The position numbers and the translations under genes were made by a program. Shown in pieces: positions 1 through 31,454 of a stretch of 58,220 nt of DNA (positions are counted from its first letter, which is position 1; each line of letters begins with the position of its first letter). The stretch is taken from contig JAQXPY010000042.1 in NCBI GenBank assembly GCA_029100885.1, forward strand, positions 1-58,220. Reading direction: 5' to 3'. The DNA comes from Clostridiales bacterium (lineage in GTDB: Bacteria > Bacillota > Clostridia > Lachnospirales > Lachnospiraceae). The notes beneath the pieces were generated by a model, which ran no database searches, had not been told where the DNA came from, and saw only the letters and a program-made list of their open reading frames with translations.

Positions 1-165
1 AATGGCCTCATTGACACACGCAGGTGCAGGAACATTAGGATTACCGAGGCTGAAGTCATAGACATTTTCAGCACCGATCTCAGCTTTTCTGCGGGCGCCG
101 TATTCGGAAAGCTCTCTGATGCAGCTGCGGCTTAAGCCCCAACCAAGCGTTTTTTCTGGTAACAT
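1..165 (-). CDS. PLP-dependent aminotransferase (class I/II), N-terminal ~55 codons only; the gene runs off the left edge
   Basis: Reverse-strand ATG at 163-165 preceded by AGGAGGAT (rc of 171-178). Translation is MLPEKTLGWGLSRSCIRELSEYGARRKAEIGAENVYDFSLGNPNVPAPACVNEAI; the DFSLGNPN segment is typical of Asp/Ala-type aminotransferase N-termini. It is absent from the ORF track because it is open-ended. Confidence 0.7.
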   Translation of the reverse strand, partial: MLPEKTLGWGLSRSCIRELSEYGARRKAEIGAENVYDFSLGNPNVPAPACVNEAI

Positions 166-466
166 ATCTTATCCTCCTGAAAGTGTAGATTATTTGTACA
201 ATCTGTTGTTGATCGATCATCTGTCCGGCACCCGGCAAAGTGATTTTTCTTCTGAATATCGTGCCGTGTGCTCCTGATGTGTCATGGTGTGTGCTGTTAC
301 TATTCAGCACCCGGTAAAATACATTCGCAATTCACTCGCCTTTGGCTCGCTTCTTGCTCATGTTTTTGCCGTCTGCTCCTCAGACCCGTCACGATCTCAT
401 ACGGAAAAATATGCAGGCACATTTTTCCTACTGATATCGCGGCATGTGCTGAATAGTTACCGTTTT

Positions 467-2755
467 TTACAACTTGCTTCTGATGACGGTGCCGTTGGCA
501 GTCTTAGGAAGCTCTGATCTGAACTCTACTATACGCGGATACCTGTAAGCAGCGGTATGTGTTTTGACATAGTTCTGTATCTCTTCCTTAAGATCGTCGG
601 ATGGCTCCTTATCGTCTATAAGAACCACGCTGGCCTTGACGACCTGTCCTCTTATTTCGTCAGGAACAGCCGATACTCCGCATTCCTTTACATAAGGAAG
701 CTCCATGATGACGCTTTCCACCTCATAAGGACCTATACGGTAGCCCGAGCATTTGATAACATCATCGACTCTTCCGATCGGCCAGAAATAGCCGTCCTCA
801 TCCTTCCATGCCAGATCGCCTGTATGGAAATAACCGCCTGCAAATACCTTTGCGTTCGAATCCGGGGAGTTGTAGTAGCCTGTCATAAGTCCGATAGGCA
901 TGCCCTGACTTATGGAAATGCATATCTCGCCGGGTTCCCCGGTCTCTACCTCGTTAAGTTCGGTGTCAAGAAGACGGATATCGAAGATAGGATTGACCTT
1001 TCCTACAGCTCCGGCCTTAGGCGTCATGCCGATAAAGGAGCCGAGCAGAAGTGAGGTCTCCGTAAGTCCGTATCCTGTCATGATGGAAAGACCGGTCTCT
1101 TTCCTGAAGTGGTTGAATACTTCGGCGCTGAGGTTATCCCCGACGGAGCACACATGCTTAAGGGAAGACAGATCGAAGCTCTTCAGATCCTCATGTAGAA
1201 GAGCCCTGAACATGGATCCTGGAGCGGTAAACGAGGCGATCCTGTATCTTTCGATAAGCTTCAGAAGGTCAGAAGGCTTAATCTTTCTGAAATCATAGGC
1301 AAATACTCCCGATTCGCAGATCCACGGACCAAAGAGCTTTCCCCAAAGAGCCTTTGCCCAGGCGGTGTCGGAAAGACAGAAGCTTAACGTATCGGGCTCA
1401 TTGCAGTTCCAGTAATAGCCTGTAACAAAATGCGCCAGCGGATATCTGCAGTCAAAGCAGGTCGCCTTTGGCATGCCGTCCGAGTAGGACTGGAATATCA
1501 TCATCAGTGGATCACTGCCGCAGGCGGAATCTCTTGATCTCAAAAACCTTGCCGACATCCTGTCATATTCGGTATCGAAATCATACCAGCCATCAGGAGC
1601 GGAGCCTGCAGCTATCTTAATAAGAGACCTGCCGTATCTGGAAGCCGCACTGTCAATCTGTCCGGTTATAAAGCTGTCGCCGCAGGCTATGACTGCGCTT
1701 ATGCCTGCCGCTCTGAACCTGTACAGGTAATCCTTCTCAAGCAGCTGGTCGATAACGGGAACGGCTACCGCACCGATCTTCTGGAGAGCTGTAATTATGA
1801 TCCAGAAATGATAGGAACGACGCAGCACAAGCATGACACGATCTCCCTTTTTGATACCGAGGGAGGCAAGGTAATTGGCGGCACGTCCGCTCTTTTTCTT
1901 TATATCCTTAAATGTAAAACGGCGTTCCGTAAGGCCTTCGTCCAGATGAACGAGTGCTGTCTTATCAGGCTCTGTATCAGCGATCCTGTCAACGATATCA
2001 AAGGCAAAGTTGAACCTGTCGCTATTTTTGAAAAAAATACTTTCAAGTACGCCGCTGCCGGATTCCTTAGGCGATACAAAGTCCTCCCATACACGGCGGC
2101 GTCCGGTCTCCCTTGTAGCTGTAAGGACAGGAACCTGGGTACGCGCCTTTGAGAAGTCAATATCCTCCGGTGAGACCATAGCAGCTAAAAAAACACAGTC
2201 CTTACCGCCGGAGGCTATCATGCCGTGCGGAGCCGAGGAATCGTAAAATATCGTGTCCCCGGCATTCAGAACCTCTGTATGCTCGCCGATGCGGATCTTC
2301 AGACTGCCGCTGAGAATATAGTCAAATTCCTGACCTATGTGAGAGGAGACCTCTATAGGGAGGTTTTCCTTTTCCGGATCGTATTCAACAGTCACAATGA
2401 GCGGTTCCACCATTCTGTTTCGGAATTTTGAGGCAAGATTATGAACTGTCATGCCGTTGGCTCTGCTGACAGTACCGGTATCTCCTCCGCGGTTTACCGA
2501 GTATGAGCTCAGATTAGGCACAGCTCCTTCGATAAGCTCATTGATATCTACATTAAAGACCTGGGAGCAGGTATAGAGAAAAGCATAGTTCAGCTCATGC
2601 TCACCGTTTTCAAAGGCAGAATAGTCTTCCGCGGAAATACTTAAGATACCTGCCATATATTCCTTTGTAAAATTATGAATATGCCGCAGATCTCGGATAC
2701 GCCTTCTGATATCAGATGAACTGAGATCAGGCATGGTTGTTTCAGACATGATCAT
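467..2755 (-). CDS. XRE-HTH + cupin domain fused to an AMP-forming acyl-CoA synthetase-like domain (762 aa); the catalytic motifs are degenerate, so it may be a non-catalytic sensor or regulator paralog
   Basis: The N-terminus has an HTH_3-like segment (IRDLRHIHNFTKEYMAGILSISAEDYSAFENGE) and a cupin (GQEFDYILSGSLKIRIGEHTEVLNAGDTIFYDSSAPHGM). The C-terminal ~520 aa align along their length with the neighbouring paralog and carry adenylate-forming motifs (GYGLTET, YFHTGDLAWKDEDGYFW, GRVDDVIKCSGYRIGPYEVE). The A3 loop reads FQSYSDGMPKA and A10 reads PKTANGTVIR (Lys replaced by Thr). Confidence 0.85.
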   Translation of the reverse strand: MIMSETTMPDLSSSDIRRRIRDLRHIHNFTKEYMAGILSISAEDYSAFENGEHELNYAFLYTCSQVFNVDINELIEGAVPNLSSYSVNRGGDTGTVSRANGMTVHNLASKFRNRMVEPLIVTVEYDPEKENLPIEVSSHIGQEFDYILSGSLKIRIGEHTEVLNAGDTIFYDSSAPHGMIASGGKDCVFLAAMVSPEDIDFSKARTQVPVLTATRETGRRRVWEDFVSPKESGSGVLESIFFKNSDRFNFAFDIVDRIADTEPDKTALVHLDEGLTERRFTFKDIKKKSGRAANYLASLGIKKGDRVMLVLRRSYHFWIIITALQKIGAVAVPVIDQLLEKDYLYRFRAAGISAVIACGDSFITGQIDSAASRYGRSLIKIAAGSAPDGWYDFDTEYDRMSARFLRSRDSACGSDPLMMIFQSYSDGMPKATCFDCRYPLAHFVTGYYWNCNEPDTLSFCLSDTAWAKALWGKLFGPWICESGVFAYDFRKIKPSDLLKLIERYRIASFTAPGSMFRALLHEDLKSFDLSSLKHVCSVGDNLSAEVFNHFRKETGLSIMTGYGLTETSLLLGSFIGMTPKAGAVGKVNPIFDIRLLDTELNEVETGEPGEICISISQGMPIGLMTGYYNSPDSNAKVFAGGYFHTGDLAWKDEDGYFWPIGRVDDVIKCSGYRIGPYEVESVIMELPYVKECGVSAVPDEIRGQVVKASVVLIDDKEPSDDLKEEIQNYVKTHTAAYRYPRIVEFRSELPKTANGTVIRSKL

Positions 2756-2940: not shown

Positions 2941-2977
2941 AAAAACAGCCATCGGCCAATAAAGAGACTGATGGCTG
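2941..2977 (-). terminator. Rho-independent terminator downstream of the 3027-5336 gene
   Basis: Minus-strand hairpin CAGCCATC(16-nt loop)GATGGCTG followed by UUUUU (rc of the A-run at 2941-2945), about 50 nt after the stop codon. Confidence 0.6.
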
Positions 2978-3026
2978 CGGATGCTTATTATAGCGTAAAT
3001 ATTAATGATAATTATCCTTATTGGAT

Positions 3027-5336
3027 TTAAAGCTTGTTTCTCTGGATCTTTCCGCTGACTGTCTTAGGCAGTGAATCGCGGAATACTACTATACGAGGAT
3101 ACTTGTAAGGAGCAGTCTTTTCCTTAACATAGTTCTGGATATCCTTCTTGAGCTCTTCTGTAGGCTCCGTACCCTTTACAAGCACGATGCTTGCCTTAAC
3201 GACCTGACCTCTCGTCTCATCCGGCTCGGCGGATACTCCGCATTCTAAAACATAAGGAAGCTCCATGATGACAGACTCGATCTCGAAAGGTCCGATACGA
3301 TAGCCGGAGGACTTGATGATGTCGTCGGTCCTGCCCACATACCAGAAGTATCCGTCCTCATCTCTCCATGCCAGATCGCCTGTGTGATACCAGCCGTCGT
3401 GCATAGCTCTCTTTGTGGTCTCGGGATCATTGTAATAGCCCTTGAAGAGTCCGCAAGGAGTACCCTTGGAATAGTTGATGACGATCTCGCCCGGCTCTCC
3501 TGTACCGACTGACTCCCCGTCGGAATTTACGAGGTCGATCTGATACATAGGACTCGGCTTGCCCATTGAGCCTGGCTTTGGAGTCATTCCTACGAAGTTT
3601 CCGACTGTCAGCGTTGTTTCTGTCTGTCCGAAGCCCTCCATGATGCTCAAGCCCGTAGCTTCCTTAAATCTGTCAAATACTTCAGGGTTCATCGCCTCAC
3701 CGGCTATGCTGGCATGCTTGATGCTTGACAGATCGTATTTGCTGAGATCCTCCTTGATAAAGAAACGGTACATCGTAGGCGGAGCACAGAAGGTAGTGAT
3801 ATTGTATTTCGCGAACAGAGGAAGCAGATCGTCGGAATGGAATCTGTCGAAATCGTATACAAAGGTTGCTGCTCCGTTCATCCACTGACCGTAGATCTTC
3901 CCCCAGAGAGCCTTGCCCCAGCCTGTATCCGATATGGTGAAGTGGATGCCGTCAGGATCCACATCGTGCCAGTAACGGGCTGTTGCAAAATGACCGAGAG
4001 GATATTTGCAGCTGTGCTCCACAGCCTTCGGATACCCGGAGGTACCGGAGGAAAAGAGCATGAGCATGGTATCTTCTCCGCAGATGCATTCGCCTGTGCG
4101 GCGGTAACGGCTTGAATACATATCATATTCGTCATCGAAATCATGCCAGCCCTCTGCTTCGGCTCCCTCACAGAGACCGCCTGTCATGATCTTGAGCTCC
4201 ACGGTAGGGCACTGAGGCAGAGCCTTTTCGACCTCCTCATGAACGGTGCCGAAGGAGGTGCAGACGACCGCCCTGACAGATGCCGCATTGAAGCGGTATT
4301 CCAGATCCTTTTTAAGCAGCTGGTCTGTGGCAGGTATGGCAACGGCTCCCAGCTTGTGCAGGCCTACGAGAATAGGCCAGAATTCCCAGTTTCTGCGAAG
4401 AAGCAGAAGCACCTTATCACCCTTTCTGATACCCTGTGCCTTGAAATAATTGGCTGCTCTGGCGCTCATTTTCTTCATATCGTTGAAGGTGAAGCGGCGC
4501 TCGTTCTTTTCACGGTCAAGGTGGAGCATGCACAGACGGTCAGGCTGCTCTTCGGCGACAGCGTCCACAACATCAAAGGCAAAATTAAAGTTTTCTGTAT
4601 TCTTAAATACTAGCTTAGTCGGATAGCCTGCCTCATTCTCCTCTGTCTGTATAAAATCTTCGACGAAATTAGGCACAGGCTTGCGGTACACGGCAGGAGC
4701 TGTCTGAACAGAAGCACTGTTTCTCAGGTGACCGTCCTTCCATACTACCTCCGAACCCTCTTCAGGGAGAATGACTGAAAGGAATGTGACATCCTCTCCG
4801 TTGAGAGCTATCATTCCGTGAGGATTTGAAGAGCTGTAAAAGGCACTGTCACCCACATTAAGAATCTCTTCGTGTTCACCGATCTTAAGCTTCATAGAGC
4901 CCTTGAGTACTATATCGAATTCCTGACCGGAATGGGTGACCTGATGGATAGGAGCAGTTTGCTCCTCCTCGGAGTATTTGTATGTTACCCAATACGGATC
5001 TGCCTTACGGTTTTTGAAAAGAGGTGCAATGCTCTTGATCTCAATACCCGGCTCTACAGCTGTGATCTGTCCTTCACCGGCTCTTGTGATCTCATAGCCT
5101 GTAAGCCGCGGGCTGGTTCCCTCAAGCAGCTCCATCATTTCAACGCCGAACACATTGGCGCATTTGTGAATGAAGGAGAACGGAAGGTCTGCCTCACCCT
5201 GTTCGTAGAGCTCGTAATCCGAAAGGCTGAAGGCGGTAAGAGCAGCCATCTCCTCGGTGGAATATCCGCTGTCGAGACGGAGCTGTCTGATTCTCTCGGC
5301 TACCTCATGAAGCATTTTTCCTGTTGTTTCTGTCAT
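3027..5336 (-). CDS. XRE-HTH + cupin domain fused to a medium-chain (ACSM/Macs-like) AMP-forming acyl-CoA synthetase, 769 aa, catalytic motifs intact
   Basis: HTH (RIRQLRLDSGYSTEEMAALTAFSLSDYELYEQGE) and cupin (GQEFDIVLKGSMKLKIGEHEEILNVGDSAFYSSSNPHGM) are present. Intact adenylation motifs: A3 LFSSGTSGYPKAV, A5 GFGQTET, A7 YHTGDLA, A8 GRTDDIIKSSGYRIGPFEIE, A10 PKTVSGKIQR. RBS GGAGGAAAAG lies upstream of the ATG at 5336. Confidence 0.9.
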   Translation of the reverse strand: MTETTGKMLHEVAERIRQLRLDSGYSTEEMAALTAFSLSDYELYEQGEADLPFSFIHKCANVFGVEMMELLEGTSPRLTGYEITRAGEGQITAVEPGIEIKSIAPLFKNRKADPYWVTYKYSEEEQTAPIHQVTHSGQEFDIVLKGSMKLKIGEHEEILNVGDSAFYSSSNPHGMIALNGEDVTFLSVILPEEGSEVVWKDGHLRNSASVQTAPAVYRKPVPNFVEDFIQTEENEAGYPTKLVFKNTENFNFAFDVVDAVAEEQPDRLCMLHLDREKNERRFTFNDMKKMSARAANYFKAQGIRKGDKVLLLLRRNWEFWPILVGLHKLGAVAIPATDQLLKKDLEYRFNAASVRAVVCTSFGTVHEEVEKALPQCPTVELKIMTGGLCEGAEAEGWHDFDDEYDMYSSRYRRTGECICGEDTMLMLFSSGTSGYPKAVEHSCKYPLGHFATARYWHDVDPDGIHFTISDTGWGKALWGKIYGQWMNGAATFVYDFDRFHSDDLLPLFAKYNITTFCAPPTMYRFFIKEDLSKYDLSSIKHASIAGEAMNPEVFDRFKEATGLSIMEGFGQTETTLTVGNFVGMTPKPGSMGKPSPMYQIDLVNSDGESVGTGEPGEIVINYSKGTPCGLFKGYYNDPETTKRAMHDGWYHTGDLAWRDEDGYFWYVGRTDDIIKSSGYRIGPFEIESVIMELPYVLECGVSAEPDETRGQVVKASIVLVKGTEPTEELKKDIQNYVKEKTAPYKYPRIVVFRDSLPKTVSGKIQRNKL

Positions 5337-5488
5337 TTCTTTTCCTCCGTATCAGTAAAGTATTGATGCAGGCATATAGAATGATTGAATGCAGTGACGG
5401 CGTCGGGCACTTACGTTTTATAAAAATGCCGAGCCCGGGCCGTATCTACGGGATAGAGCTGACCGGAATAGGAAACCGGATATAAAAC

Positions 5489-5757
5489 AAAAAAGCCCGT
5501 CCCAAGAAAAAACCTTGAGACGAGCTGCTTATATGCATACCCGCGGTACCACTCAAATTGCGCTTTGACACGCCACTCATCAGACTCCTGCAAGTCCTGA
5601 GCACTAACGTAGCTTACACGTGAGACCCTACCCGGTATTCGCTCGGATCTCCGACTCGGAAGTGATGGATCATTGGGATGCCCTTCGCCCTGCTTCCAGC
5701 CAGTGACAGGTTCTCTGTTCTCCGGACGCTTCCCGATCGTCTTCGTCAATGTCTTTT
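5489..5757 (-). promoter_or_regulatory. T-box riboswitch leader (candidate specifier AUC = Ile) with intrinsic terminator, upstream of the 3027-5336 gene
   Basis: Elements on the minus strand: the Stem I base GGAAG...CUUCC; an AGAGA bulge followed by the distal loop UCACUGGCUGGAAG; an F-box-like ACGUUAG; and the T-box core AAUUUGAGUGGUACCGCGG (rc of 5541-5560). The terminator is AGCUCGUCUCAAGG-UUUUUU-CUUGGGACGGGCU (rc of 5494-5526) followed by a U-run. The candidate specifier is rc of 5664-5666 followed by A. Confidence 0.85.
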
Positions 5758-5762
5758 GACAC

Positions 5763-5791
5763 ATTAAAGCACAAGAGCATTGATATGTCAA
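5763..5791 (-). promoter_or_regulatory. Sigma-70-type promoter for the T-box leader (TTGACA-17 nt-TTTAAT)
   Basis: rc of 5786-5791 is TTGACA and rc of 5763-5768 is TTTAAT, with an exact 17-nt spacer. It sits immediately upstream of the first T-box helix. Confidence 0.6.
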
Positions 5792-6994: not shown

Positions 6995-8347
6995 ATGCTT
7001 TTGAAAACAGGAACAAAAGAAATTATGAAACGTGGCAGGAACCCTTTTGCAAACATAATCAAAAGGAATTATGATACACGAATCAGACTTGTATCTATGA
7101 GATCTTCCTTCCTGACAGGAAAGGCTGTGGCGGTCTCGCTGCTCGCAGGCGGCGCGGCCTCTTTTGCGATGCACAGAACACAGCCTGGAATCGTCCTGAT
7201 TTTTTTCGGAGCTGCGGCGCTTTTGTCCCGGAAAATGGCTCTTGACTCACTGAGGGATGTTGAATTTGAGGCAGAGGGAAGCAGATATGCAATGTTTCCG
7301 GACTCGGACTTCGAACTGATACTTAAGATAAATAATCATAAGGCTCTGCCGCTCATATGGCTGGAGGCGGCTTTCCCTGTAGAGGAGGATTCCCCTGTTC
7401 GTCCGGTAAACGAAGAGGATATATTTAGATCCGACGGACTCACCAGGGCGGATGAGGATCTGCCGGACTGTCCGATGCTGAGAATAAAGACAGCCTTTAT
7501 TATGCCTTATCAGGAATTGAAGATAAAGGTTCCGATGAAGGCAGTAAGGAGAGGAATCTTCAGCTTTGATATGATCAGGCTGTATTCGGGAGACGGTCTC
7601 GGTCTTGCGCAGGCCGGTATGACAGCGGCAGCCCCTGGCAGAAGCTTTGCCGTATTTCCGAGACCGGCTGATGTGAGCACAGAGCTGTTTACCAGAAATC
7701 AATGGATGAGCAAGGGCGGCAGCAGAGGCTGTACGGAGGATCCGACTCTTATAAGAGGCACAAGAGAATATCAGACGGGCGATCAGTGGAAGCGCATAAA
7801 CTGGAGGATGACTGCAAGGGGACTGCCTCTGACGGTCAATCTCCCGGAAATGATACTGCCTGCGTCGTCCCATTTTATTGTAGACGGTGAGAGCTTTGGA
7901 GGGACTGAGCCGCTAAGAGAGGAATTTGAACAGATGCTGGGCATTCTGTCCGGAATCATCCTCAGACTGGATGAAATGGGGCTCTCCTGTGGACTTACTC
8001 TGCCGGATTCTCTGCGTGGCAGAGGACAGACTCTGGATGCGGGAACAGATCCTGTGGGGCTTTTGTATGCATTAGCCGAATATGAGTTGAAAATGCCGGT
8101 ATATGATGAAAATAACGAATATATTCCGTCGGCATCGTTTTTTGACAAAAGGAGACTTATGAGGAGCATATCCTCGTCAGGTGCGGTTTATTATTTTACG
8201 GAAAATGCTTCCGCTGCCGATAAAGAAATCATAAGGATGGCAGAAGGAAGGATAATGCTGATAACATCAAGACAGCCGTCGGAAAAGGAGATCAGGTCCT
8301 CCGGCTGCAGAATAGTACCGTTTTCCGCGATACTCAGAAAGAAGTGA
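6995..8347 (+). CDS. DUF58 (vWA-like) protein, the usual MoxR partner; exact start uncertain (alternatives 7025, 7097)
   Basis: The REYQTGDQWKRINWRMTAR segment is the DUF58 signature. An N-terminal TM segment is present and the gene immediately follows moxR. Confidence 0.8.
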   Translation: MLLKTGTKEIMKRGRNPFANIIKRNYDTRIRLVSMRSSFLTGKAVAVSLLAGGAASFAMHRTQPGIVLIFFGAAALLSRKMALDSLRDVEFEAEGSRYAMFPDSDFELILKINNHKALPLIWLEAAFPVEEDSPVRPVNEEDIFRSDGLTRADEDLPDCPMLRIKTAFIMPYQELKIKVPMKAVRRGIFSFDMIRLYSGDGLGLAQAGMTAAAPGRSFAVFPRPADVSTELFTRNQWMSKGGSRGCTEDPTLIRGTREYQTGDQWKRINWRMTARGLPLTVNLPEMILPASSHFIVDGESFGGTEPLREEFEQMLGILSGIILRLDEMGLSCGLTLPDSLRGRGQTLDAGTDPVGLLYALAEYELKMPVYDENNEYIPSASFFDKRRLMRSISSSGAVYYFTENASAADKEIIRMAEGRIMLITSRQPSEKEIRSSGCRIVPFSAILRKK

Positions 8348-13059: not shown

Positions 13060-13899
13060 ATGAAGTCTGAATTCTGGGAAAAAATGTTATACGGACCGAG
13101 ACGTATCCTTGTTACCGGTCATTTCGGAAGCGGGAAGACAGAGTTTTCTGTTTCTCTCGCTTTTGCACTTGCTGAAAGGATGTCAGTCGCAGGAAACAGA
13201 GTAAATGACACAACGGGAGCGATCGTTCCGGGTGCCTCCGGGACAGGAGCTGCAGTGGATGATGCCGTGTACGGGCGGCCGCTCAGGGAGAGCAGGCTGG
13301 CTCTTGCCGATCTGGATATAGAAAACCCATATTTCAGAAGCCGTGAGCGTCAGGATGAGTTGAATGCCGCAGGCGTCAGAGTCTATTCCGATCCCTTTAA
13401 CGGCAGAAACGGGTCGGAGCTTCAGGTCATCAGCGCCTCAGTCCTGGCTCCTGTACAGGATCCGGAATGCCGCATAATCATCGACACCGGCGGAGACAAG
13501 TCGGGAGCCATGGTCCTCAATCAGTTCAGCAGACATTTCGGAGATGATTATCAGCTCTTAAGCGTGGTCAACTGCAACAGACCGGGAACCGATACACCGG
13601 AAAAGGCTGCCGTTCAGATTCGGGAAGCCCAGGCTGTGACCGGTCTTAAGGTCACCGGACTTGTTTCAAACGCTCATTTTATCAGATATACTTCGGCAGA
13701 GGATGTTTTGCATGGTCTTGATTTTACTATGAAGGTCTCAGAGCTTACCGGAATCCCGGTTCTGTGTGCCTGTGCCATGGATTCTGTCTGTTCGGAGGTC
13801 CGGAAGGCTGTTTCCGAGGGCAAAGCGGAGCTTAAGGGTGCGGAGCTTTTCAGGATCGGCATGTATATGAGAGAGTCATACCTCGATAAGAGAGTATAA
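13060..13899 (+). CDS. P-loop NTPase (SIMIBI/MinD-Mrp-like), first gene of the 2-oxoacid:ferredoxin oxidoreductase cluster
   Basis: Walker A GHFGSGKTE, an ADLDIENPYF switch-like segment, a Walker B-like IIIDTGGD and VVNCNRPG. A low-complexity insert (NDTTGAIVPGASGTGAAVDD) follows the Walker A helix. Confidence 0.65.
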   Translation: MKSEFWEKMLYGPRRILVTGHFGSGKTEFSVSLAFALAERMSVAGNRVNDTTGAIVPGASGTGAAVDDAVYGRPLRESRLALADLDIENPYFRSRERQDELNAAGVRVYSDPFNGRNGSELQVISASVLAPVQDPECRIIIDTGGDKSGAMVLNQFSRHFGDDYQLLSVVNCNRPGTDTPEKAAVQIREAQAVTGLKVTGLVSNAHFIRYTSAEDVLHGLDFTMKVSELTGIPVLCACAMDSVCSEVRKAVSEGKAELKGAELFRIGMYMRESYLDKRV

Positions 13900-13949
13900 A
13901 TTTTAATGAAAACCATTCTTCTTTAAAATATCAGAAAGGAGTTCAGGTA

Positions 13950-14174
13950 ATGAAAAGAAGATTTAAAGTACTTTTCAACAAGGAGAAATGCAAGGGCTGT
14001 GAGCTGTGTATTTCCTTCTGTCCTAAGAAGATACTGGGTCTGGATCCTGAGGTGAATTCCAAGGGCTATCATCCTGCCGGTATTATCAACGAGGAGGAAT
14101 GCATAGGCTGCCGGAGCTGTGCGACCATGTGTCCTGACTGCTGCATTACCATTCAGGAGATTGAGGAGGCATAA
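13950..14174 (+). CDS. 2-oxoacid:ferredoxin oxidoreductase delta subunit (2x[4Fe-4S] ferredoxin domain)
   Basis: Two CxxCxxCxxxCP motifs (CKGCELCISFCP and CIGCRSCATMCP). GGAG RBS. It immediately precedes the alpha subunit. Confidence 0.85.
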   Translation: MKRRFKVLFNKEKCKGCELCISFCPKKILGLDPEVNSKGYHPAGIINEEECIGCRSCATMCPDCCITIQEIEEA

Positions 14175-14176
14175 TT

Positions 14177-15253
14177 ATGAGCAAGGTTTTAATGAAAGGA
14201 AATGAGGCATTTGCGGAGGCTGCTATCAGAGGCGGCTGTAAATGCTACTTTGGTTACCCTATCACTCCTCAGAACGAGGTTCCCGAGTACATGAGCCATG
14301 AGCTGCCTAAGGCAGGCGGAGCATTTATTCAGGCCGAGAGCGAGCTGGCTGCCGTCAATATGGCGTATGGCGCAGCTGCCAGCGGAGGAAGAGTATTTAT
14401 ATCTACCAGTTCTCCGGGACTTGCGCTTATGCAGGAGGGACTTGGCTTTATCTGCTCCTGTGAGGTTCCGCTGGTCGTTATGAATGTTTCAAGAGGCGGT
14501 CCCGGTGTCGGAGGTATTCAGCCAGGTCAGGCGGACTATTTCCAGGTCACCAGAGGCGGATACAACGGTGATGCAAGGATTCCGGTTTTTGCCCCTGCAA
14601 ATATTCAGGAGAGCGTGGATCTTATTTATGAATGCTTTGATATCGCCGAGAAATACCGCAATCCTGTTGTCATCTTTGCCGACGGTATGCTCGGTCAGAT
14701 GATGGAGCCGGTAGAGCTTCCGGAGCACAAGGGAATCCTTCCTGAGGATAAGATCTCAGAGGTCAAGCCATGGGCTATTACCGGAACCGATAATCATGAG
14801 GGAAGAAACGTTATCTATTCGCTCAGACTTCAGCCTGATGTGCTCGAGAATCATGTACACCATATGTTTGAAAAGTATGCAGAGGCTGAGAGGGAGCTGG
14901 TACGCTATAAGACTGTCGGTCTTGAGGATGCGGAGATCGTATTTGTTGCATTCGGAACTATGTCCAGGATCTGCGCAGAGGCTATTGAGCTTCTTGAGGA
15001 GCAGGGAGTTAAGGCCGGTCTTATCAGACCGATAAGCCTGTGGCCGTTCCCTAAGGCCGCCTTTGATGAGATCGGAGCAAAGACAAAGCTCGTTATTTCC
15101 ACAGAGCTTTCCATGGGACAGATGATCGAGGATGTAAAGATGGCATGTGCCGGAAGATGGCCGGTGGGTCTTATCAACCGTACAGGCGGAATCGTTCCGT
15201 CTTCAAGAGAGGTTGCGGACCGTGCTCTCAAAGCCCTTCAGGAGGTGAAATAA
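14177..15253 (+). CDS. 2-oxoacid:ferredoxin oxidoreductase alpha subunit (VorB/KorA-like)
   Basis: MKGNEAFAEAAIRGGCKCYFGYPITPQNE...AESELAAVNMAYGAAASGGR is the conserved OFOR alpha N-terminus. The gene is packed tightly against its neighbours. Confidence 0.9.
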   Translation: MSKVLMKGNEAFAEAAIRGGCKCYFGYPITPQNEVPEYMSHELPKAGGAFIQAESELAAVNMAYGAAASGGRVFISTSSPGLALMQEGLGFICSCEVPLVVMNVSRGGPGVGGIQPGQADYFQVTRGGYNGDARIPVFAPANIQESVDLIYECFDIAEKYRNPVVIFADGMLGQMMEPVELPEHKGILPEDKISEVKPWAITGTDNHEGRNVIYSLRLQPDVLENHVHHMFEKYAEAERELVRYKTVGLEDAEIVFVAFGTMSRICAEAIELLEEQGVKAGLIRPISLWPFPKAAFDEIGAKTKLVISTELSMGQMIEDVKMACAGRWPVGLINRTGGIVPSSREVADRALKALQEVK

Positions 15254-15997
15254 ATGAAGACGATATTTGAGCCTACAAAGGGAATGCTCCCTGTTGATAC
15301 AAGCTACTGCCCTGGATGCACTCACGGAATCGCTCACCGCATTATCATGGAGGTCCTTGAGGAGAGAGGAGATCTCGGCAAGACTATCGGAGTGGTTCCG
15401 ATCGGATGCTCCATCAATGCACATCATTTTATGAATATCGATATGTGCGAGTCTACCCACGGAAGAGCTCCGGCAATTGCTTCAGGTATCAGAAGAGTAC
15501 ATCCGGACAAGGTGATCTTCACCTATCAGGGTGACGGAGATCTGGCATCTATCGGTGCGGGAGAGATTATACATGCCGCCCACAGAGGCGAAAAGTTTAC
15601 CACCTTCTTTATCAATAACGGTATCTACGGCATGACCGGAGGACAGATGGCTCCGACCACCCTTATCGGACAGAAGGCTACCACCTGTGTTGACGGAAGA
15701 ACCGTAGAGCAGGCGGGCAAGCCTCTCAGAATGTGTGAGATCATTTCTCAGATAGACTGTGCTGTATTTGTAGAAAGGGTCATGCTCAACAACCCTGCAA
15801 ATGTCCGCAAGGCAAAGGAGGTTGTCCGCAAGGCTCTCGAGATCCAGGATGCCCGTCTCGGCTTTACCTTTGTCGAATTCCTGAGCTCCTGCCCAACCAA
15901 CTGGGGCCTGACTCCTGTGGATTCTCTGAAGTTCATTGAGAAGGACATGGCTGAGTATTATCCAGTTAAAAACTTTAAGACACCGGAGGGATTTTGA
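15254..15997 (+). CDS. 2-oxoacid:ferredoxin oxidoreductase beta subunit (TPP-binding)
   Basis: CPGCTHG cluster ligands near the N-terminus and the TPP motif GDGDLASIGAGE...NNGIYGMTGGQ. Confidence 0.9.
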   Translation: MKTIFEPTKGMLPVDTSYCPGCTHGIAHRIIMEVLEERGDLGKTIGVVPIGCSINAHHFMNIDMCESTHGRAPAIASGIRRVHPDKVIFTYQGDGDLASIGAGEIIHAAHRGEKFTTFFINNGIYGMTGGQMAPTTLIGQKATTCVDGRTVEQAGKPLRMCEIISQIDCAVFVERVMLNNPANVRKAKEVVRKALEIQDARLGFTFVEFLSSCPTNWGLTPVDSLKFIEKDMAEYYPVKNFKTPEGF

Positions 15998-16527
15998 TTA
16001 TGAAAAAGAAGATGTTCTTTGCAGGAAGCGGAGGACAGGGGGCCCTCGCAATTGGTCAGATGATAGCAAAAGCAGGTATGGAAGAAGGAAATGAAGTCAC
16101 ATGGCTTCCTTCCTACGGCCCGGAAATGAGAGGCGGTACGGCAAACTGTACGGTGATAGTATCTGACAAGCCTATCAGCTGTCCGCTCATCAATGATGCC
16201 GATGTTCTGGTTGCCATGAATCTGCCGTCGCTCAGAAAATTTGAATCCATGGTCAATCCGGGCGGTTATATTTTTATCAACAGCTCCATGGTTCCGGAGA
16301 CCTCGACACGTACAGATGTCAAGGTTATCGAAATTCCGGCAAACGAAAAGGCTGTGGAGATCGGGAATGACAGGGCGGCAAACATCGTCATGCTCGGTGC
16401 GATCCTTGCGGAGACAGGCTGCTGTAAAAAGGAGACTATCCTTCATCAGATGGAGAAGATGTTCTCCGGCAGAAAGGCAAAGTTCCTTCCTGCAAATATC
16501 GCGGCGCTGGAGCTCTACTGCAAATGA
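15994..16527 (+). CDS. 2-oxoacid:ferredoxin oxidoreductase gamma subunit
   Basis: GSGGQGALAIGQMIAKAG...SYGPEMRGGTANC is the conserved gamma-subunit signature. Its start overlaps the beta-subunit stop by 4 nt. Confidence 0.9.
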   Translation: MIMKKKMFFAGSGGQGALAIGQMIAKAGMEEGNEVTWLPSYGPEMRGGTANCTVIVSDKPISCPLINDADVLVAMNLPSLRKFESMVNPGGYIFINSSMVPETSTRTDVKVIEIPANEKAVEIGNDRAANIVMLGAILAETGCCKKETILHQMEKMFSGRKAKFLPANIAALELYCK

Positions 16528-16590
16528 TCTGCTGCAAACCTTATAAACATATTTTGCATATAATTGTTTTATTTTCTCAGGAGGAAAATT

Positions 16591-17430
16591 ATGGCAGGAA
16601 AAAAGATGACAGTCATTGACTTTCAGAAGTACAAGGACGAGGGAAAAAAGTTCAGCTTCGTAACAGCATATGACTATACAACAGCTTCTATTATCAATGA
16701 TTCGGATGTTGAGGTCATCCTCGTAGGTGATTCCCTTGGAATGATCATGCTTGGTTATGATTCTACCGTTCCGGTAACACTGGATGATGTTATTCATCAT
16801 GCGAAGCCTGTTGTTAAGGGTGCTCCTGATAAGTTTATTATCGGTGACATGCCGTTCGGCTCATACAATGTCAGCATCGAAGAGGCTATCAGAAATGCAA
16901 ACCGCATGGTCAAGGAGACAGGCTGCGATTGTATTAAGCTGGAGGGAGGCGTTGAGATGGCAGACACCATCCGTGCCCTCGTTAAGGCCGGAATCAATGT
17001 TATGGGTCATATAGGTATGACTCCTCAGACAGCTACCTCCTTCGGCGGCTTCAAGGTTCAGGGAGGAACTCCTGAGTCAGCAAGAAAGCTTATCGAGGAT
17101 GCCAAGGCTCTTCAGGACGCAGGCGTTTTCTCTATCGTAGTCGAGTGTGTTCCGAGCGTTGTTGCCAAGGCTATGCAGGAAGAGGTAAGAGTACCTATAC
17201 TTGGAATCGGTGCCGGTCCTGATGTTGACTGTCAGGTTCTTGTTACACAGGATCTTTTAGGAATGTACGGCGACTTCAAGCCTAAGTTCGTAAAGCAGTT
17301 TGCGCATATCCGTGAGGAGATGGTTAGAGGACTCAACCAGTTCCATGAGGAGACTATCAGCGGAGAGTTCCCGACACCTGAGTTTAGCTTCAACAAGGCT
17401 GTGGATATCCCTAAGGTATATGGCGGCTGA
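16591..17430 (+). CDS. panB: 3-methyl-2-oxobutanoate hydroxymethyltransferase
   Basis: The ATG at 16591 follows AGGAGGA. FSFVTAYDYTTA...VGDSLGM...GDMPFGSY...IKLEGG...GHIGMTPQ are PanB signatures. The ORF-track start at 16564 is probably too far upstream. Confidence 0.9.
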   Translation: MAGKKMTVIDFQKYKDEGKKFSFVTAYDYTTASIINDSDVEVILVGDSLGMIMLGYDSTVPVTLDDVIHHAKPVVKGAPDKFIIGDMPFGSYNVSIEEAIRNANRMVKETGCDCIKLEGGVEMADTIRALVKAGINVMGHIGMTPQTATSFGGFKVQGGTPESARKLIEDAKALQDAGVFSIVVECVPSVVAKAMQEEVRVPILGIGAGPDVDCQVLVTQDLLGMYGDFKPKFVKQFAHIREEMVRGLNQFHEETISGEFPTPEFSFNKAVDIPKVYGG

Positions 17431-17675
17431 TATTAATATTTTGCCGGATTTTTTATTTGAAAACTGCGGCAGCGTGACTATATCCGGGGCTGGGCTTCAG
17501 TCCCGGATGTAGCTGCATAATAGTGCGAGCTCTGAAAGGTATTATTTCGAATGTCTGACCACATTTTTGATAGTCGCAAGCTGTTGTGTCTGTCAGAGCT
17601 GCTGCGAAAAAGCAACATCAAGTAACAGTTCCACAGAAACTGTTGCGGTTTTTAAGAAAAAGGGGATATAAAGAA

Positions 17676-18224
17676 TTGTTAGGGGATAAGGTTAGGGAAG
17701 CCAGAAAGAGCAAGCATATTACGCTTGAACAGCTGGCCGAGGCAAGCGGACTGACTGCAAGTTATATTTCGCAGTTGGAAAGGAATCTGACAGAGCCTTC
17801 TATTTCTTCGCTAAGAAAGATAGCCCAGGAGCTGCAGATGCCGATTTATGCTTTTCTTGAAGAGGAGAGTCCGCAGACATTTGTGATCAGAAGGGGAAGG
17901 AGAAAGTCCCTGAGACTTGAGCAGAGCGGAATAGAGTATGAGTACCTTACTCCTCTGGGTGCAAATCGCAATCCGATGATGGAGATAGTGGAGTTCAAGC
18001 TCAAGCCGGGCAAATGGACAAATGATGACTATCTGCGTCATTCACTTTCCGAGGAGTGCATAGTTGTTCTTGAAGGCGCGCTGACTGTTGACTGCGTGGA
18101 CCAGACTTATATTCTGGAGCAGGGTGACAGCATTTACCTGAACAACAATACACCGCACAATATTTATAATCACACTGATAAAAATGCCGCAGCGCTGTTT
18201 TTTGCAACGCCGCCGGTTTTGTAA
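17676..18224 (+). CDS. XRE-HTH + cupin transcriptional regulator (stand-alone); TTG 17676 preferred, GTG 17586 is an alternative start
   Basis: HTH LGDKVREARKSKHITLEQLAEASGLTASYISQLERN followed by a C-terminal cupin (ECIVVLEGALTVDCVDQTYILEQGDSIYLNNNTPHNIYN). AGGGGA lies 9 nt before the TTG. Confidence 0.75.
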   Translation: MLGDKVREARKSKHITLEQLAEASGLTASYISQLERNLTEPSISSLRKIAQELQMPIYAFLEEESPQTFVIRRGRRKSLRLEQSGIEYEYLTPLGANRNPMMEIVEFKLKPGKWTNDDYLRHSLSEECIVVLEGALTVDCVDQTYILEQGDSIYLNNNTPHNIYNHTDKNAAALFFATPPVL

Positions 18225-18237
18225 GGAGGAAAAAGCA

Positions 18238-19176
18238 ATGAAGATCGGATTTCTCGGTTGCGGAGCTATCGGAAGCATCTATGCAGGTTATCTGACAAAG
18301 GCTCATGAGGTATGCGTGGTTGATACCTTTGCACCGGTCATCGAAGCAGTAAAAAAAGACGGAATTCTTATTGACGAATGTGTACCGGGATCGGGAAGCG
18401 GAGAAACAGTCTCATTCAGACCTGCAATGGCATCTACCGATCCGAAGGAGATTGGAGTTGTAGATATTCTTATCGTCTTTGTAAGATATATGTTCCTTGA
18501 GGCTGCCTGCAGAAATGCACTCCCTATGATAGGACCTGACACTGTGGTAGTAACACTTCAGAACGGTATCGGCAACTATGATGAGATCGCAAAGGTCGTT
18601 CCTGAGGATCAGATCGTAATAGGAAACACAGCCTTCGGCTCCACCGGCTTAGCCCCGGGACATGTAAAGCATACAGGAACCGGAACCACATTCATGGGAA
18701 CTCTTGCAGCGCCTATCGAAAAGGCAGAGAAGGCTGCGGCAGCACTCAGAGAGGCCGGTTTTGAGGTGGTAGTCAAGGAAAATGTTATGGAGGTCATCTG
18801 GCATAAGGCTTTTGCCAATGTTGCTATCAATGCTATTACAGCTCTGATGGATCAGACTAACATTTTCATCAACGACAATCAGTATGCCAGAGAGGCTGCA
18901 AGACTTCTGGTGGAGGAGGCTCTTGATGTTGCCATTGCCAGCGGCTGCAGGTTTGACAGGGAAGCGGAGCTTGCGCATGCCTATGAGATCGCTGTGGCTA
19001 CAGGTACGAACAGATCCTCAACGCTTCAGGATGTTACACACCAGAAGGAGACTGAGATCAGGATCATCAACGGAGCGGTCTCCAGGATCGGACGCCAGTA
19101 CGGGATCCCTACTCCGTATAACGATATGATCTGTCAGCTTATGCTTGCAAAGCAGTCAATTTATCTCGGCAGATAA
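18238..19176 (+). CDS. panE: 2-dehydropantoate 2-reductase (ketopantoate reductase, PanE/ApbA family)
   Basis: The ATG at 18238 follows AAGGAGGA. It has an N-terminal Rossmann fold MKIGFLGCGAIGSIYAG and the C-terminal STLQDV...KETEI motif typical of the family. Confidence 0.85.
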   Translation: MKIGFLGCGAIGSIYAGYLTKAHEVCVVDTFAPVIEAVKKDGILIDECVPGSGSGETVSFRPAMASTDPKEIGVVDILIVFVRYMFLEAACRNALPMIGPDTVVVTLQNGIGNYDEIAKVVPEDQIVIGNTAFGSTGLAPGHVKHTGTGTTFMGTLAAPIEKAEKAAAALREAGFEVVVKENVMEVIWHKAFANVAINAITALMDQTNIFINDNQYAREAARLLVEEALDVAIASGCRFDREAELAHAYEIAVATGTNRSSTLQDVTHQKETEIRIINGAVSRIGRQYGIPTPYNDMICQLMLAKQSIYLGR

Positions 19177-19285: not shown

Positions 19286-20812
19286 ATGTTTCAGATCATG
19301 AGTGCCAGAGAGGCAGTGAGCCTCATCAAGGACGGCGATGTAATCGGTCTTAATTCATTCGTAGGTATTGCGAATCCTGAAAAGATTCATGATGCGATCA
19401 CCGAGAGCTTCAGAGAAACAGGCTCACCGAAGAATCTGACCCTCGTATCCGCTTCCGGTTTCGGAACCTTTGATCCAAACAGAAGTGCGGAAAACTATAT
19501 CCGTGAAGGAGCTGTAAGCAGGATCATCTGCGGCCATTACGGAGCAATGCCAAGCACAAAGAGGCTGGTTCTGGAGGACAAATTTGAGGCTTATAACATA
19601 CCTCTAGGTCCGATGTCCCATACCATGCGTGCCCAGGCAGGCGGACATGACGGCTATCTCAGCAAGGTAGGCCTCGGGATTTTTGTGGATCCGAGAGTGG
19701 AGGGTCCGGGACTCAACAGCATTTCCCGGGACAAATCCCTTGTCAAGGTTGTTGATGTGGACGGAGAGGAGTATCTTCAGTACAGACTTCCTGCATTTAA
19801 TGTAGCCATAATCAAGGCCAGCAGCGTGGACGCATACGGAAATATTTCCTTTGAGGACGAGTACTGTACGATTGATGCTCTTTCCATTGCTCAGCTCACA
19901 AAGCGAAACAAGGGAAAGGTAATAGTTCAGGTCGACAGGGTAAAGCATGATTTCAGCAGACCGAGGGATGTCATCATTCCGGCTGTATTCGTGGATGCGG
20001 TAGTGGTATGTGAGCCTGAGACCTCCAGCGATGCCAACGGAACACTTTCAGGAAACATTCATGTTCCGTCAACTCATATGCAGTATTGGTACAGAAGGCT
20101 TTCCGATCAGAATGCCAAGAGCGGAAAAGCAAGAAGTGATTTTTCGGCTGATATTATCGGCAGAAGAGCGGCGAAGGAGCTGAAGAGGGGAGACATCGTT
20201 AATATCGGTGTAGGTATCCCTGAGATGGTCAGCAAATATGCAGCTGCAGGAGGTATCCTTCAGGATCTTACACTTTCTGTTGAGTCAGGAGGAACAGGCG
20301 GTCTTCCTGCCGGCGGACTTGACTTCGGAGCAATGATAGGCGCAGGAACCATCTGTGATATGGCGAACCAGTTTGATTTTTATGACGGAGGCGGTCTTGA
20401 TATCTGCTTCATGGGCGGTTTAGAGATGGACAGGTTCGGAAATGTCAACTCACACAGAGGCGCTGATCAGGTCTCCGGTATCGGCGGCTTCGGAAATATT
20501 ACTGCTGCGACTCGCAATGTGGTCTTCTGCTTTACCTTCAATACAAAGGGACTTAATGTTACCGAGGAGAACGGAAAAGTTGTGATCAATTCCGAGGGAA
20601 GCATTCCAAAGCTTGTTGAGAAGGTCAGAAGCATCAGCTTTTCCGGAGAGAGAGCCATTAAGAACGGACAGCATGTTATCTATGTAACGGAGCGATGCGT
20701 ATTTGAGCTGAAGCCGGAGGGTCTGACGCTTATTGAGGTGTATCCGGGCATAGATGCACAGAAGGATATCTTTGACAGGCTTCCTTTCAAGGTAATTGAC
20801 GGCAGACAGTGA
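19286..20812 (+). CDS. Family-I acyl-CoA:carboxylate CoA-transferase (YdiF/propionate CoA-transferase type)
   Basis: N-terminus SAREAVSLIKDGDVIGLNSF and a central LSVESGGTGG (catalytic Glu region). Single-chain fused A/B architecture of about 510 aa. Confidence 0.85.
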   Translation: MFQIMSAREAVSLIKDGDVIGLNSFVGIANPEKIHDAITESFRETGSPKNLTLVSASGFGTFDPNRSAENYIREGAVSRIICGHYGAMPSTKRLVLEDKFEAYNIPLGPMSHTMRAQAGGHDGYLSKVGLGIFVDPRVEGPGLNSISRDKSLVKVVDVDGEEYLQYRLPAFNVAIIKASSVDAYGNISFEDEYCTIDALSIAQLTKRNKGKVIVQVDRVKHDFSRPRDVIIPAVFVDAVVVCEPETSSDANGTLSGNIHVPSTHMQYWYRRLSDQNAKSGKARSDFSADIIGRRAAKELKRGDIVNIGVGIPEMVSKYAAAGGILQDLTLSVESGGTGGLPAGGLDFGAMIGAGTICDMANQFDFYDGGGLDICFMGGLEMDRFGNVNSHRGADQVSGIGGFGNITAATRNVVFCFTFNTKGLNVTEENGKVVINSEGSIPKLVEKVRSISFSGERAIKNGQHVIYVTERCVFELKPEGLTLIEVYPGIDAQKDIFDRLPFKVIDGRQ

Positions 20813-21154: not shown

Positions 21155-22225
21155 ATGGAAATTAAAATCACAAGAACAGAAAATCCCGGACAGAAGCCTG
21201 CAGATGAGTCAAAGCTCGGCTTCGGTAAGATCTTTACAGATCATATGTTCATCTATGACTGGGACGATCAGATCGGTTGGCACGATGCCAGAATAGTACC
21301 TTTCGGAAGCCTTGAGCTTCATCCGGCAGCTACTGTATTCCATTATGCTCTCGAGGTTTTTGAGGGACTTAAGGCATACAGAACAGCTGATGGAACAGTA
21401 CAGCTTTTCAGACCTGACGAGAACGCAAAGCGTATGATCAATTCAGCAGAGAGAATCGGCCTTCCTCCTGTCCCTGTTGATGATTTCGTACAGGCTGTCA
21501 AGACACTTATTTCCGTTGACAAGGACTGGTGTCCGCATTCAGACGGATGTTCTCTGTATATCAGACCGTTCCTGTTCGGTACCGATGCCAGCGTAGGACT
21601 TCATACTCTTCATTCAGCTAAGTTTGTAATTATCGTGGCTCCGTCAGGCGCTTATTACGCAAACGGAATCAATCCTGTTGACATCATGATCGAGACAGAG
21701 GATGTAAGAGCTGTAAGAGGCGGTACAGGATACACAAAGTGCGGAGGAAACTACGCGGCTGCCCAGAGAGCAACAGTTGAGGCCGAGAAGAAGGGCTTCT
21801 CTCAGGTACTGTGGCTGGACGGAGTTGAGCGTAAGTATATTGAAGAAGTAGGTTCCATGAACATTATGTTCAAGATCGACGGAAAAGTGGTTACTCCGAG
21901 CATCGAGGAGAAGACGGTTCTTCCGGGCATTACCAGAAAGAGTATGCTGGAGGTGCTTCGCGACAGGGGATTTGCTGTTGAGGAGCGCAAGATCAGTATT
22001 GAAGAGATCGAAGAGGCTGCCAAGGCAGGAAAGTTAGAGGAGGCCTGGGGTACAGGCACGGCTGCTGTCGTTTCTCCTGTAGGAAGACTTCAGATAGACG
22101 GTGTTGATTATATTATCAATAACGGAAAGATAGGCGAAGTTACACATATGCTTTACAATACACTTACGGGTATTCAGTGGGGCAAGATCGAAGATACGTA
22201 CGGCTGGACAGTAAAGGTTGACTGA
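21155..22225 (+). CDS. ilvE: Branched-chain amino acid aminotransferase
   Basis: FGKIFTDHMF...FHYALEVFEGLKAYR...GGTGYTKCGGNYAA...PGITRKS...GTGTAAVVSPV are class-IV BCAT signatures. Confidence 0.92.
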   Translation: MEIKITRTENPGQKPADESKLGFGKIFTDHMFIYDWDDQIGWHDARIVPFGSLELHPAATVFHYALEVFEGLKAYRTADGTVQLFRPDENAKRMINSAERIGLPPVPVDDFVQAVKTLISVDKDWCPHSDGCSLYIRPFLFGTDASVGLHTLHSAKFVIIVAPSGAYYANGINPVDIMIETEDVRAVRGGTGYTKCGGNYAAAQRATVEAEKKGFSQVLWLDGVERKYIEEVGSMNIMFKIDGKVVTPSIEEKTVLPGITRKSMLEVLRDRGFAVEERKISIEEIEEAAKAGKLEEAWGTGTAAVVSPVGRLQIDGVDYIINNGKIGEVTHMLYNTLTGIQWGKIEDTYGWTVKVD

Positions 22226-31175: not shown

Positions 31176-31375
31176 AGCCTGCCGAGATACTGTCCTTTCT
31201 GTTGTTTTATGATTGAAACAGAGCTGCCGCAGCAGCTTAGGCTTAATGTAATGGGCAGCTTTACATATCGTTCTGTTTTATTGATTGAAGTTCTGTCATG
31301 CAGCTCTGCACTGTAATATTTTGGTTGACATTTCGGAAACATATATGATATAGTGTATGGGCTTCAGGTAAGCAG

Positions 31376-31448: not shown

Positions 31449-31454
31449 TATGGC

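Follow-up and report, generated by a model that had tools for sequence, protein, structure and literature searches.

A T-box leader with an isoleucine specifier precedes an HTH-cupin-acyl-CoA synthetase gene and may tie 2-methylbutyrate activation to isoleucine supply in Clostridia

Rumen bacteria need branched-chain volatile fatty acids, which they convert to branched-chain amino acids. In the classical scheme of reductive carboxylation, the acid becomes an acyl-CoA, the acyl-CoA is carboxylated with ferredoxin to a 2-oxoacid, and the 2-oxoacid yields the amino acid; rumen anaerobes (methanogens are documented) build isoleucine and leucine from 2-methylbutyrate and isovalerate (PMC10658910). 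The scheme comes from physiology, and in the literature we found no assignment of the activating enzymes of this route or of their regulation. The locus described here offers gene candidates for the same proposed chemistry in rumen and gut Clostridia, each labeled by a tRNA specificity. It consists of a T-box leader and the gene behind it, which encodes a 769-aa fusion of an XRE-type helix-turn-helix (HTH), a cupin and an AMP-forming acyl-CoA synthetase (ACS), on the minus strand of a 58,220-nucleotide contig from a Clostridiales bacterium (JAQXPY010000042.1; this whole stretch is called the window below).

How does this locus compare with described systems? The leader shares the architecture of class I transcriptional T-boxes (RF00230; e.g., the isoleucine leaders of ileS and ilv-leu in Firmicutes), and its AUC specifier fits the known T-box preference for C at the third specifier position (PMC7778990). 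Unlike in known T-boxes, the target is an HTH-cupin-fused AMP-forming ACS rather than an aminoacyl-tRNA synthetase, a classical biosynthesis gene or a transporter. The sub-family to which the leader belongs also stands apart from known T-boxes by a distinctive invariant core, CAAUUUGAGUGGUACCGCG, and, in its isoleucine class, by a reduced specifier loop that has lost part of AGUA and often has a pyrimidine after the codon. As to the enzyme, MacsMa of Methanosarcina acetivorans (3ETC) prefers 2-methylbutyrate and uses an alternate acyl pocket in which one Trp is critical (PMC10455477); unlike the window protein, it is archaeal, lacks an N-terminal HTH-cupin and is under no known T-box control. 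MbcS of Staphylococcus aureus is selective for 2-methylbutyrate and isobutyrate, which it scavenges from the medium (PMC10026030); it too differs from the window protein in lacking an HTH-cupin and in delivering its product to FabH, and no T-box is mentioned in the MbcS literature that we checked.

If the RNA is a T-box of the usual kind, what is it doing in front of a CoA ligase? We think it likely that the leader is a transcription-attenuating tRNA-Ile T-box set over a 2-methylbutyrate-to-isoleucine route composed of the ACS, a Vor-type 2-oxoacid:ferredoxin oxidoreductase and the aminotransferase IlvE. When isoleucine is scarce, uncharged tRNA-Ile would dock on Stem I, its anticodon pairing with AUC, its elbow stacking on the platform of AG bulge and distal loop, and its free NCCA end pairing with the UGGU bulge; the antiterminator would be stabilized over the 14-bp terminator, and transcription would read through into the 769-aa gene (5336-3027). 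The enzyme would turn exogenous 2-methylbutyrate into 2-methylbutyryl-CoA, the Vor-type oxidoreductase would reductively carboxylate this ester to 2-oxo-3-methylvalerate, and IlvE would transaminate the latter to isoleucine. In related Clostridia the module is duplicated, with a valine T-box before a sister enzyme (isobutyrate is the proposed substrate), and in rarer cases a leucine T-box stands before a third paralog (isovalerate proposed). The tRNA response, the substrate of the enzyme and the direction of flux are what we infer; the evidence behind them is as follows.

Window positions 5791-5484 (minus strand, as are all positions of the leader) hold a full-length T-box leader together with its promoter and a strong terminator. 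An earlier note on this DNA, written from the letters alone, had described a complete leader with promoter, AGAGA bulge, distal loop, F-box, T-box core and terminator, and every one of these parts was found where it had placed them. The promoter is of the sigma-70 type, with a -35 element TTGACA (5791-5786), a 17-nt spacer and an extended -10 element TGcTTTAAT (5771-5763), in which TG (5771-5770) lies just before the hexamer TTTAAT (5768-5763). A consensus promoter scanner did not return it in the window because the scanner demands A at the second position of the -10 hexamer; of 107 orthologous leaders, 79 have a promoter of this form, and in 70 of these the extended TG is present. The RF00230 match (5513-5758) comprises Stem I, Stem II, Stem IIA/B with the F-box, Stem III and the antiterminator. 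Stem I lies between the two K-turn halves (UGA...GAG; 5655-5747), as judged from sequence, covariance model and alignment: its 5' strand contains GA (5747-5746) and GAAG (5744-5741), its 3' strand CUUC (5662-5659) and GAG (5657-5655), and between them stand the AGAGA bulge (5716-5712) and the distal helix with its loop (5710-5688). All Stem I features (K-turn, specifier loop, AG bulge and distal loop platform) are placed by the Rfam model, and model alignment and conservation set the specifier AUC at 5666-5664, followed by A (5663). An F-box-like ACGUUAG (5604-5610) on the 3' side of Stem IIA/B aligns to the model CGUUA. The T-box core AAUUUGAGUGGUACCGCGG (5541-5559) carries, inside the antiterminator helix, the UGGU bulge for the NCCA 3' end of the tRNA (5551-5548). 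The intrinsic terminator (5484-5526 in all) has a 14-bp stem (5526-5494) followed by a T-run, and its fold stands out from shuffled sequence (z = -3.2). Its 5' arm, CUCGUCUCAAGG, doubles as the 3' strand of the antiterminator, pairing with UUUGAG/GCGGG, so the two structures share a strand and are mutually exclusive.

RF00230 matches the window leader over its full length (model positions 1-219, 5758-5513) with 67.2 bits under permissive filters (E = 2e-14 for the region, 1.9e-12 for the whole window), far beyond chance. A default Rfam scan at the gathering score reports no T-box in the window because 67.2 bits fall below that score of 93, which is a curation cutoff and not a structural requirement; orthologous leaders reach 70-111 bits, many above 93 (eight loci scored). 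The comparative sample consists of 79 loci from a genome scan with more than 590 genome hits; most are metagenome-assembled genomes of rumen and gut Oscillospiraceae, Acutalibacteraceae and Ruminococcus. In nearly all 79, a distinctive core, CAATTTGAGTGGTACCGCG, lies about 100-150 nt upstream of the homolog. An explicit T-box structure of 48 pairs was counted on an alignment of 75 leaders (alignment A1): 95.4% of cells are paired, as against 35-48% with the partner columns slid, 33 of the 48 pairs show compensatory changes on both sides, and none of 500 shuffles reached the observed value. Independently, RNAalifold found compensatory changes in 24 of 34 pairs; its output was replaced by the explicit structure for pair counting, and its helix at columns 50-52/353-355 was rejected as a spurious long-range pairing, the program having also missed the base of Stem I. 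The K-turn stem, the Stem I base helix and the distal helix all covary, the last at 5/5 pairs (columns 55-59/72-76), and so do the antiterminator helices that flank the bulge, of which A1 is paired in 100% and A2 in 94%. The alternative pairing of the terminator 5' arm with the side of the T-box core, which the earlier note had read from a single sequence, was counted on the 75 leaders as well. The T-box core is invariant in 75/75 leaders, the GA/AGAGA/G.UG..A columns of Stem I are invariant or almost so, and the GT.A columns of the F-box are invariant. Together these comparisons establish the architecture of the RNA.

Which amino acid does this RNA report? In the Rfam alignment, AUC-A of the window falls into the model's 'uuc-a' slot of codon plus purine, the slot that holds AUC-A/C, GUA-G and CUC/CUG in relatives. 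The helix GAAG/CUUC that abuts this slot on its 3' side (columns 12-15/105-108 of alignment A1) is 100% paired, and two of its pairs show compensatory changes (from AU to GC five times and from GC to AU seven times), which fixes the register on AUC; the same register follows from the TBDB rule, by which the specifier is formed by nucleotides 2-4 of the specifier bulge, counted from its 3' end (PMC7778990). Of the 107 complete leaders found in the 79 related genomes, 64 carry ATC for isoleucine (next base A in 37, C in 25, G in 2), 40 carry GTA for valine (next base G in 39, A in 1), and leucine is represented by CTC in two (next base C in both) and by CTG in one (next base A). ATC is thus invariant in the isoleucine class (64/64), and in L081, a complete genome, the synonymous valine codon GUC occupies the same slot. 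The assignment of AUC (5666-5664) as the specifier, followed by A, which the earlier note had reached by hand alignment, is supported on each of these counts. The same note had read the UGGU bulge as a fit to an A73 discriminator as in tRNA-Ile; UGGU would indeed fit A73, and, being invariant across all specifier classes, it does not discriminate between tRNAs. With the specifier so placed, its amino acid matches the proposed pathway, the match to the function of the enzyme being putative.

The codon in the RNA is mirrored in the protein behind it. Leaders that read ATC stand before orthologs of the window gene; those that read GTA stand before another paralog (about 762 aa), which usually comes directly after the first. 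The GTA-led proteins all group in a single clade of a neighbour-joining tree, and this correspondence of specifier and clade is established for the sampled loci. Only seven alignment positions discriminate the isoleucine from the valine class, and two of them are invariant within each class: in SDTGW[G/A]KA[L/M]WG, they are G474 and L477 in the isoleucine class, both present in the window protein, and A and M in the valine class. In L081 the paralog behind GUC carries A..M; in L066 the one behind CUG carries G..L. A pairing of G..L with C5 acids and of the bulkier A..M with a C4 acid would fit a pocket-size code, and the pattern supports a division into three paralog classes marked by isoleucine, valine and leucine specifiers.

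The regulated gene (3027-5336, minus strand) encodes the fusion that the earlier note had recognized from its translation: Pfam finds HTH_31, Cupin_2, AMP-binding (PF00501, 200.9 bits) and AMP-binding_C (PF13193, 73.7 bits). The closest solved structure by far is that of MacsMa (3ETC; 656 bits over residues 246-767, the next PDB entry scoring 338 bits); the Trp that aligns to the MacsMa pocket Trp (W456, in YW) is conserved, as is the GWGK motif. The best NCBIfam model is MbcS (NF047394), and its score of 432.9 bits lies so far below the equivalog cutoff of 850 that the window protein is not an MbcS ortholog. Such proteins are annotated in their sources as "AMP-binding protein", "acetyl-CoA synthetase" or "XRE regulator with cupin sensor". 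By its relationship to MacsMa, in domains as in pocket, the window enzyme most likely activates 2-methylbutyrate.

The ACS gene was thought to be the only one downstream of the leader, which needs correction: a second HTH-cupin-ACS paralog of 762 aa and the same architecture follows on the same strand (467-2755). It lies past a hairpin, GCAGCCAUC...GAUGGCUG, recognized by sequence and fold, that is followed by UUUUU after the ACS stop codon (2941-2978, minus strand) and likely ends the T-box-controlled transcription unit. No T-box precedes paralog 2, a search of the whole window at E up to 0.01 having returned only one T-box; given the hairpin and this absence, the T-box unit is probably monocistronic in the window. 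Paralog 2 is about 49% identical to both T-box classes, has a mixed A..L signature and falls outside both groups in the tree. The gap between the two paralogs, which includes the paralog 2 leader, is not conserved with the nearest ortholog, L001, where the gene arrangement is syntenic. Past paralog 2, the start of an aminotransferase-like open reading frame (ORF; 1-165, minus strand) runs off the window.

The genes for the later steps are in the window as well. The oxidoreductase genes (13950-16527, plus strand; Pfam and NCBIfam) form a transcription unit of their own: a delta ferredoxin with two CxxCxxCxxxCP motifs (13950-14174), the alpha subunit VorB (14177-15253; NF005507, 475 against a cutoff of 399), and, assigned by Pfam, beta (15254-15997) and gamma (15994-16527) subunits. 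With VorB above its cutoff and beta, gamma and delta adjacent, the set qualifies as Vor-type. The branched-chain amino-acid aminotransferase gene ilvE lies at 21155-22225 (plus strand; NF009897, 460.5 against a cutoff of 307). The presence of these genes thus bears out the earlier note, and their transcription apart from the T-box unit means that the operon linkage is borrowed from relatives.

In those relatives the linkage is established. Orthologs of the window vor genes (81-86% identity) adjoin the ACS gene in six loci, directly downstream of it in L002, L004, L007, L037 and L078. L007 shows the order most plainly: isoleucine T-box (terminator at 2933-2964), ACS, 4Fe-4S delta subunit, vor alpha/beta/gamma (alpha 83% identical to that of the window) and an ilvE homolog; neighboring genes touch or overlap, and no terminator on the plus strand separates them. 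Activation, carboxylation and transamination thus stand in one regulated unit in L007, though not in the window, and to judge by its gene content this unit is a complete acid-to-amino-acid route. Valine-class loci are built alike: in L051, L052, L055 and L071 a valine T-box is followed by ACS, a P-loop protein, Fer4 and a second Vor set, and ilvE follows the valine-class ACS in L027 and L042. At 14 loci a divergent leuA-like gene behind a leucine (CUC/CUG) T-box adjoins the ACS gene. Taken together, the valine and leucine paralogs, the specifier-clade match, L007 and the MacsMa relationship support the 2-methylbutyrate-to-isoleucine proposal well, as far as comparative genomics can carry it.

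Several observations weigh against a tRNA-Ile T-box over this route. In the window, vor and ilvE lie 9-16 kb away on the opposite strand and have no T-box. The window leader scores below the Rfam gathering score, and the T-box is absent at three related loci (L006, L058 and L079), where the full upstream sequence is present and a search for a degenerate T-box found none. The base 3' of a T-box specifier is normally a conserved purine, and in 25 of 64 isoleucine-class leaders it is C; this column (104 in alignment A1, window 5663) adjoins a specifier loop whose 5' side is shortened in the isoleucine class, with AGUA partly missing. A tRNA-Ile gene for a check of anticodon and discriminator was sought in the window and 60 loci and none was found; a tRNA-Val gene, sought likewise for its discriminator pairing, was not found either. 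The characterized relative MbcS feeds membrane fatty-acid rather than amino-acid synthesis (PMC10026030). Finally, the model leaves the fused N-terminal HTH-cupin unexplained: it has no match among PDB sequences and is 22% identical to a free-standing PuuR-like HTH-cupin (17586-18224, plus strand) beside the vor cluster.

Could the T-box and the enzyme be as described, with the acyl-CoA serving mainly to prime anteiso and iso membrane fatty acids, as in the case of MbcS? Isoleucine scarcity would lower the Ile-derived primer, and the cell would scavenge 2-methylbutyrate for its lipids, so that induction by uncharged tRNA-Ile makes sense on this account too. MbcS is the best NCBIfam model for the protein and gives FabH primers from 2-methylbutyrate and isobutyrate (PMC10026030), and the window ACS is not co-transcribed with vor or ilvE. 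This is the main rival, and an unlikely one: what follows the ACS gene elsewhere is vor (in L007 and eight other loci) and ilvE (in three), amino-acid and not lipid genes; leucine T-boxes with leuA-like genes are adjacent in 14 loci; no fab or plsX neighbor of the ACS gene was found in any locus examined; and T-boxes govern amino-acid supply (PMC2494555). A lipid role could coexist with an amino-acid role and, taken by itself, leaves the vor and ilvE operons unexplained.

Less probable again is that the enzyme's substrate is a different acid (acetate, propionate, an aromatic acid or a straight medium-chain one), its link to the isoleucine T-box being indirect. The protein falls under the curated cutoff of every NCBIfam equivalog, some sources label its homologs acetyl-CoA synthetase, and MacsMa adenylates C3-C8 acids in the first half-reaction (PMC10455477). 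Set against this are the preference of the two nearest characterized relatives for small branched acids, the conserved MacsMa pocket Trp, the three paralog classes with isoleucine, valine and leucine specifiers, one per branched acid, and the operons that join the ACS to Vor-type oxidoreductases and ilvE.

Is the window leader a decaying relic that no longer switches? Its 67 bits against 93, the deletion of the specifier-loop AGUA in the alignment and the spacer (5337-5483, about 147 nt) that separates the terminator from the start codon would point that way, and we nevertheless hold decay to be very improbable. The functional motifs are intact, 45 of the 48 modeled pairs are standard, promoter, terminator and ribosome-binding site (GGAGG, 5348-5344) are present, and L001 keeps the same leader at 78% identity. 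Low scores are common to the whole sub-clade (L005 has 70.5 bits), which speaks for a divergent Stem I rather than decay. The long spacer, remarked on earlier as unusual, is real, and it is not a feature of the system: in close relatives it ranges from about 24 to 290 nt, its sequence is not conserved, and it folds no better than shuffled sequence (z = -0.56), so it was rejected as an extra regulatory element and is filler.

The weakest of the rivals, that a neighboring frame is read as UCA (serine) or CAU (histidine), has in its favor that orthologs differ in the base next to AUC, which is A, C or G as at a wobble position (UCA, UCC and UCG are all serine codons) and that TBDB also weighs the -1 and +1 registers (PMC7778990), and it is scarcely credible, since the +1 frame would give valine-class leaders the stop codon UAG, the -1 frame is unconserved in the isoleucine class (CAU, UAU or AAU), every covariance-model alignment inspected has AUC as the codon, the register-setting helix covaries and is paired in 100% of cases, and the gene context is branched-chain amino-acid metabolism. 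For the valine class, conservation alone does not exclude the -1 frame, which reads UGU (cysteine) in 40/41 cases (GGU in L039); there the exclusion rests on the register, the GGU of L039 and the gene context.

What is new here, if a tRNA-Ile T-box does govern the isoleucine route? The RNA is an ordinary if divergent T-box; new are the function under its control and the three-way pairing of specifiers with paralogs. A CoA ligase under T-box control was not found in the literature, including the T-box regulon catalogue of Wels 2008, Sun 2013 and the TBDB paper, in which CoA, AMP and fatty acids go unmentioned, although an earlier mention is possible. A more far-reaching proposal, for which we see about as much reason to believe as to doubt, is that the specifier reports the substrate (AUC 2-methylbutyrate, GUA/GUC isobutyrate, CUG isovalerate), that the G..L/A..M switch adapts the pocket, that the HTH-cupin adds a second, protein-level control by DNA binding or ligand sensing, and that the system supplies the missing activation step, with its regulation, for branched-chain amino-acid synthesis from volatile fatty acids. 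T-box specifiers are reliable, built-in amino-acid labels, and here they tie three poorly annotated paralogs, not otherwise to be told apart, to isoleucine, valine and leucine. The ACS-vor-ilvE linkage offers a gene-level model for volatile-acid conversion that bears on ruminant nutrition and gut cross-feeding, and it would add carboxylic-acid salvage to a T-box regulon known for aminoacyl-tRNA synthetases, classical biosynthesis and transporters. For protein engineering, the paralog classes could serve as a natural series of specificity swaps at the level of both RNA and protein. Sporobacter termitidis DSM 10068, which is cultured and has an ATC-A T-box (83 bits) before its homolog, would be an experimental host for the isoleucine module.

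Other genes stand beside vor and ilvE in the window. The vor genes are flanked by panB (16564-17430) and panE (18184-19176), both on the plus strand; PanB and PanE consume or follow 2-oxoisovalerate, and this setting suggests that Vor-made 2-oxoisovalerate also feeds pantoate synthesis. On the other side of vor, an ORF without a Pfam match and with a P-loop start (13060-13899, plus strand) is 30% identical (E = 5e-34) to a CbiA/ParA-like ORF of L071; the latter lies between ACS and vorD, and the similarity marks the window ORF as a conserved companion of the Vor genes. Between panE and ilvE, a CoA-transferase gene (19286-20812, plus strand), for which the best NCBIfam model is Staphylococcus FadX (289 bits, under its cutoff), could provide an alternative, ATP-independent route to branched acyl-CoAs.

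Related loci hold further T-boxes of this kind. A leucine (CUC-A) T-box of 129 bits (L076, 2290-2543, minus strand; also in L046 and L027) precedes a fusion of a xylose-isomerase-like TIM barrel with an AMP-binding enzyme (1-2193, minus strand), which may be another leucine-linked acid-activating enzyme. In L081 (7633-11388; from the 4.2-Mb genome GCA_942492735.1), the isoleucine T-box and ACS have azlC and azlD directly behind them, genes of a family to which annotation assigns branched-chain amino-acid transport, and the GUC-led second paralog lies at 13470-15773. The LeuA-like proteins behind leucine T-boxes (L013, L024 and 12 other loci, at about 600-2440, minus strand) are short (462-469 aa), all under the NCBIfam cutoffs for 2-isopropylmalate synthase, and form two groups that share about 40% identity; the leaders of one group have the ACS-leader core CAAUUUGAG, those of the other AACCGGGGUGG.

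Elsewhere in the window, the threonyl-tRNA synthetase gene (39950-41725, plus strand) is not preceded by a detectable T-box (threshold E up to 0.01). The plus strand also carries a tRNA-Thr(GGU) gene (31375-31449) and a class A RNase P RNA (53624-53975, 310 bits). In L082, a Moco/tungsten riboswitch (7403-7537, minus strand; 84 bits) lies divergently, immediately upstream of the isoleucine T-box/ACS leader.

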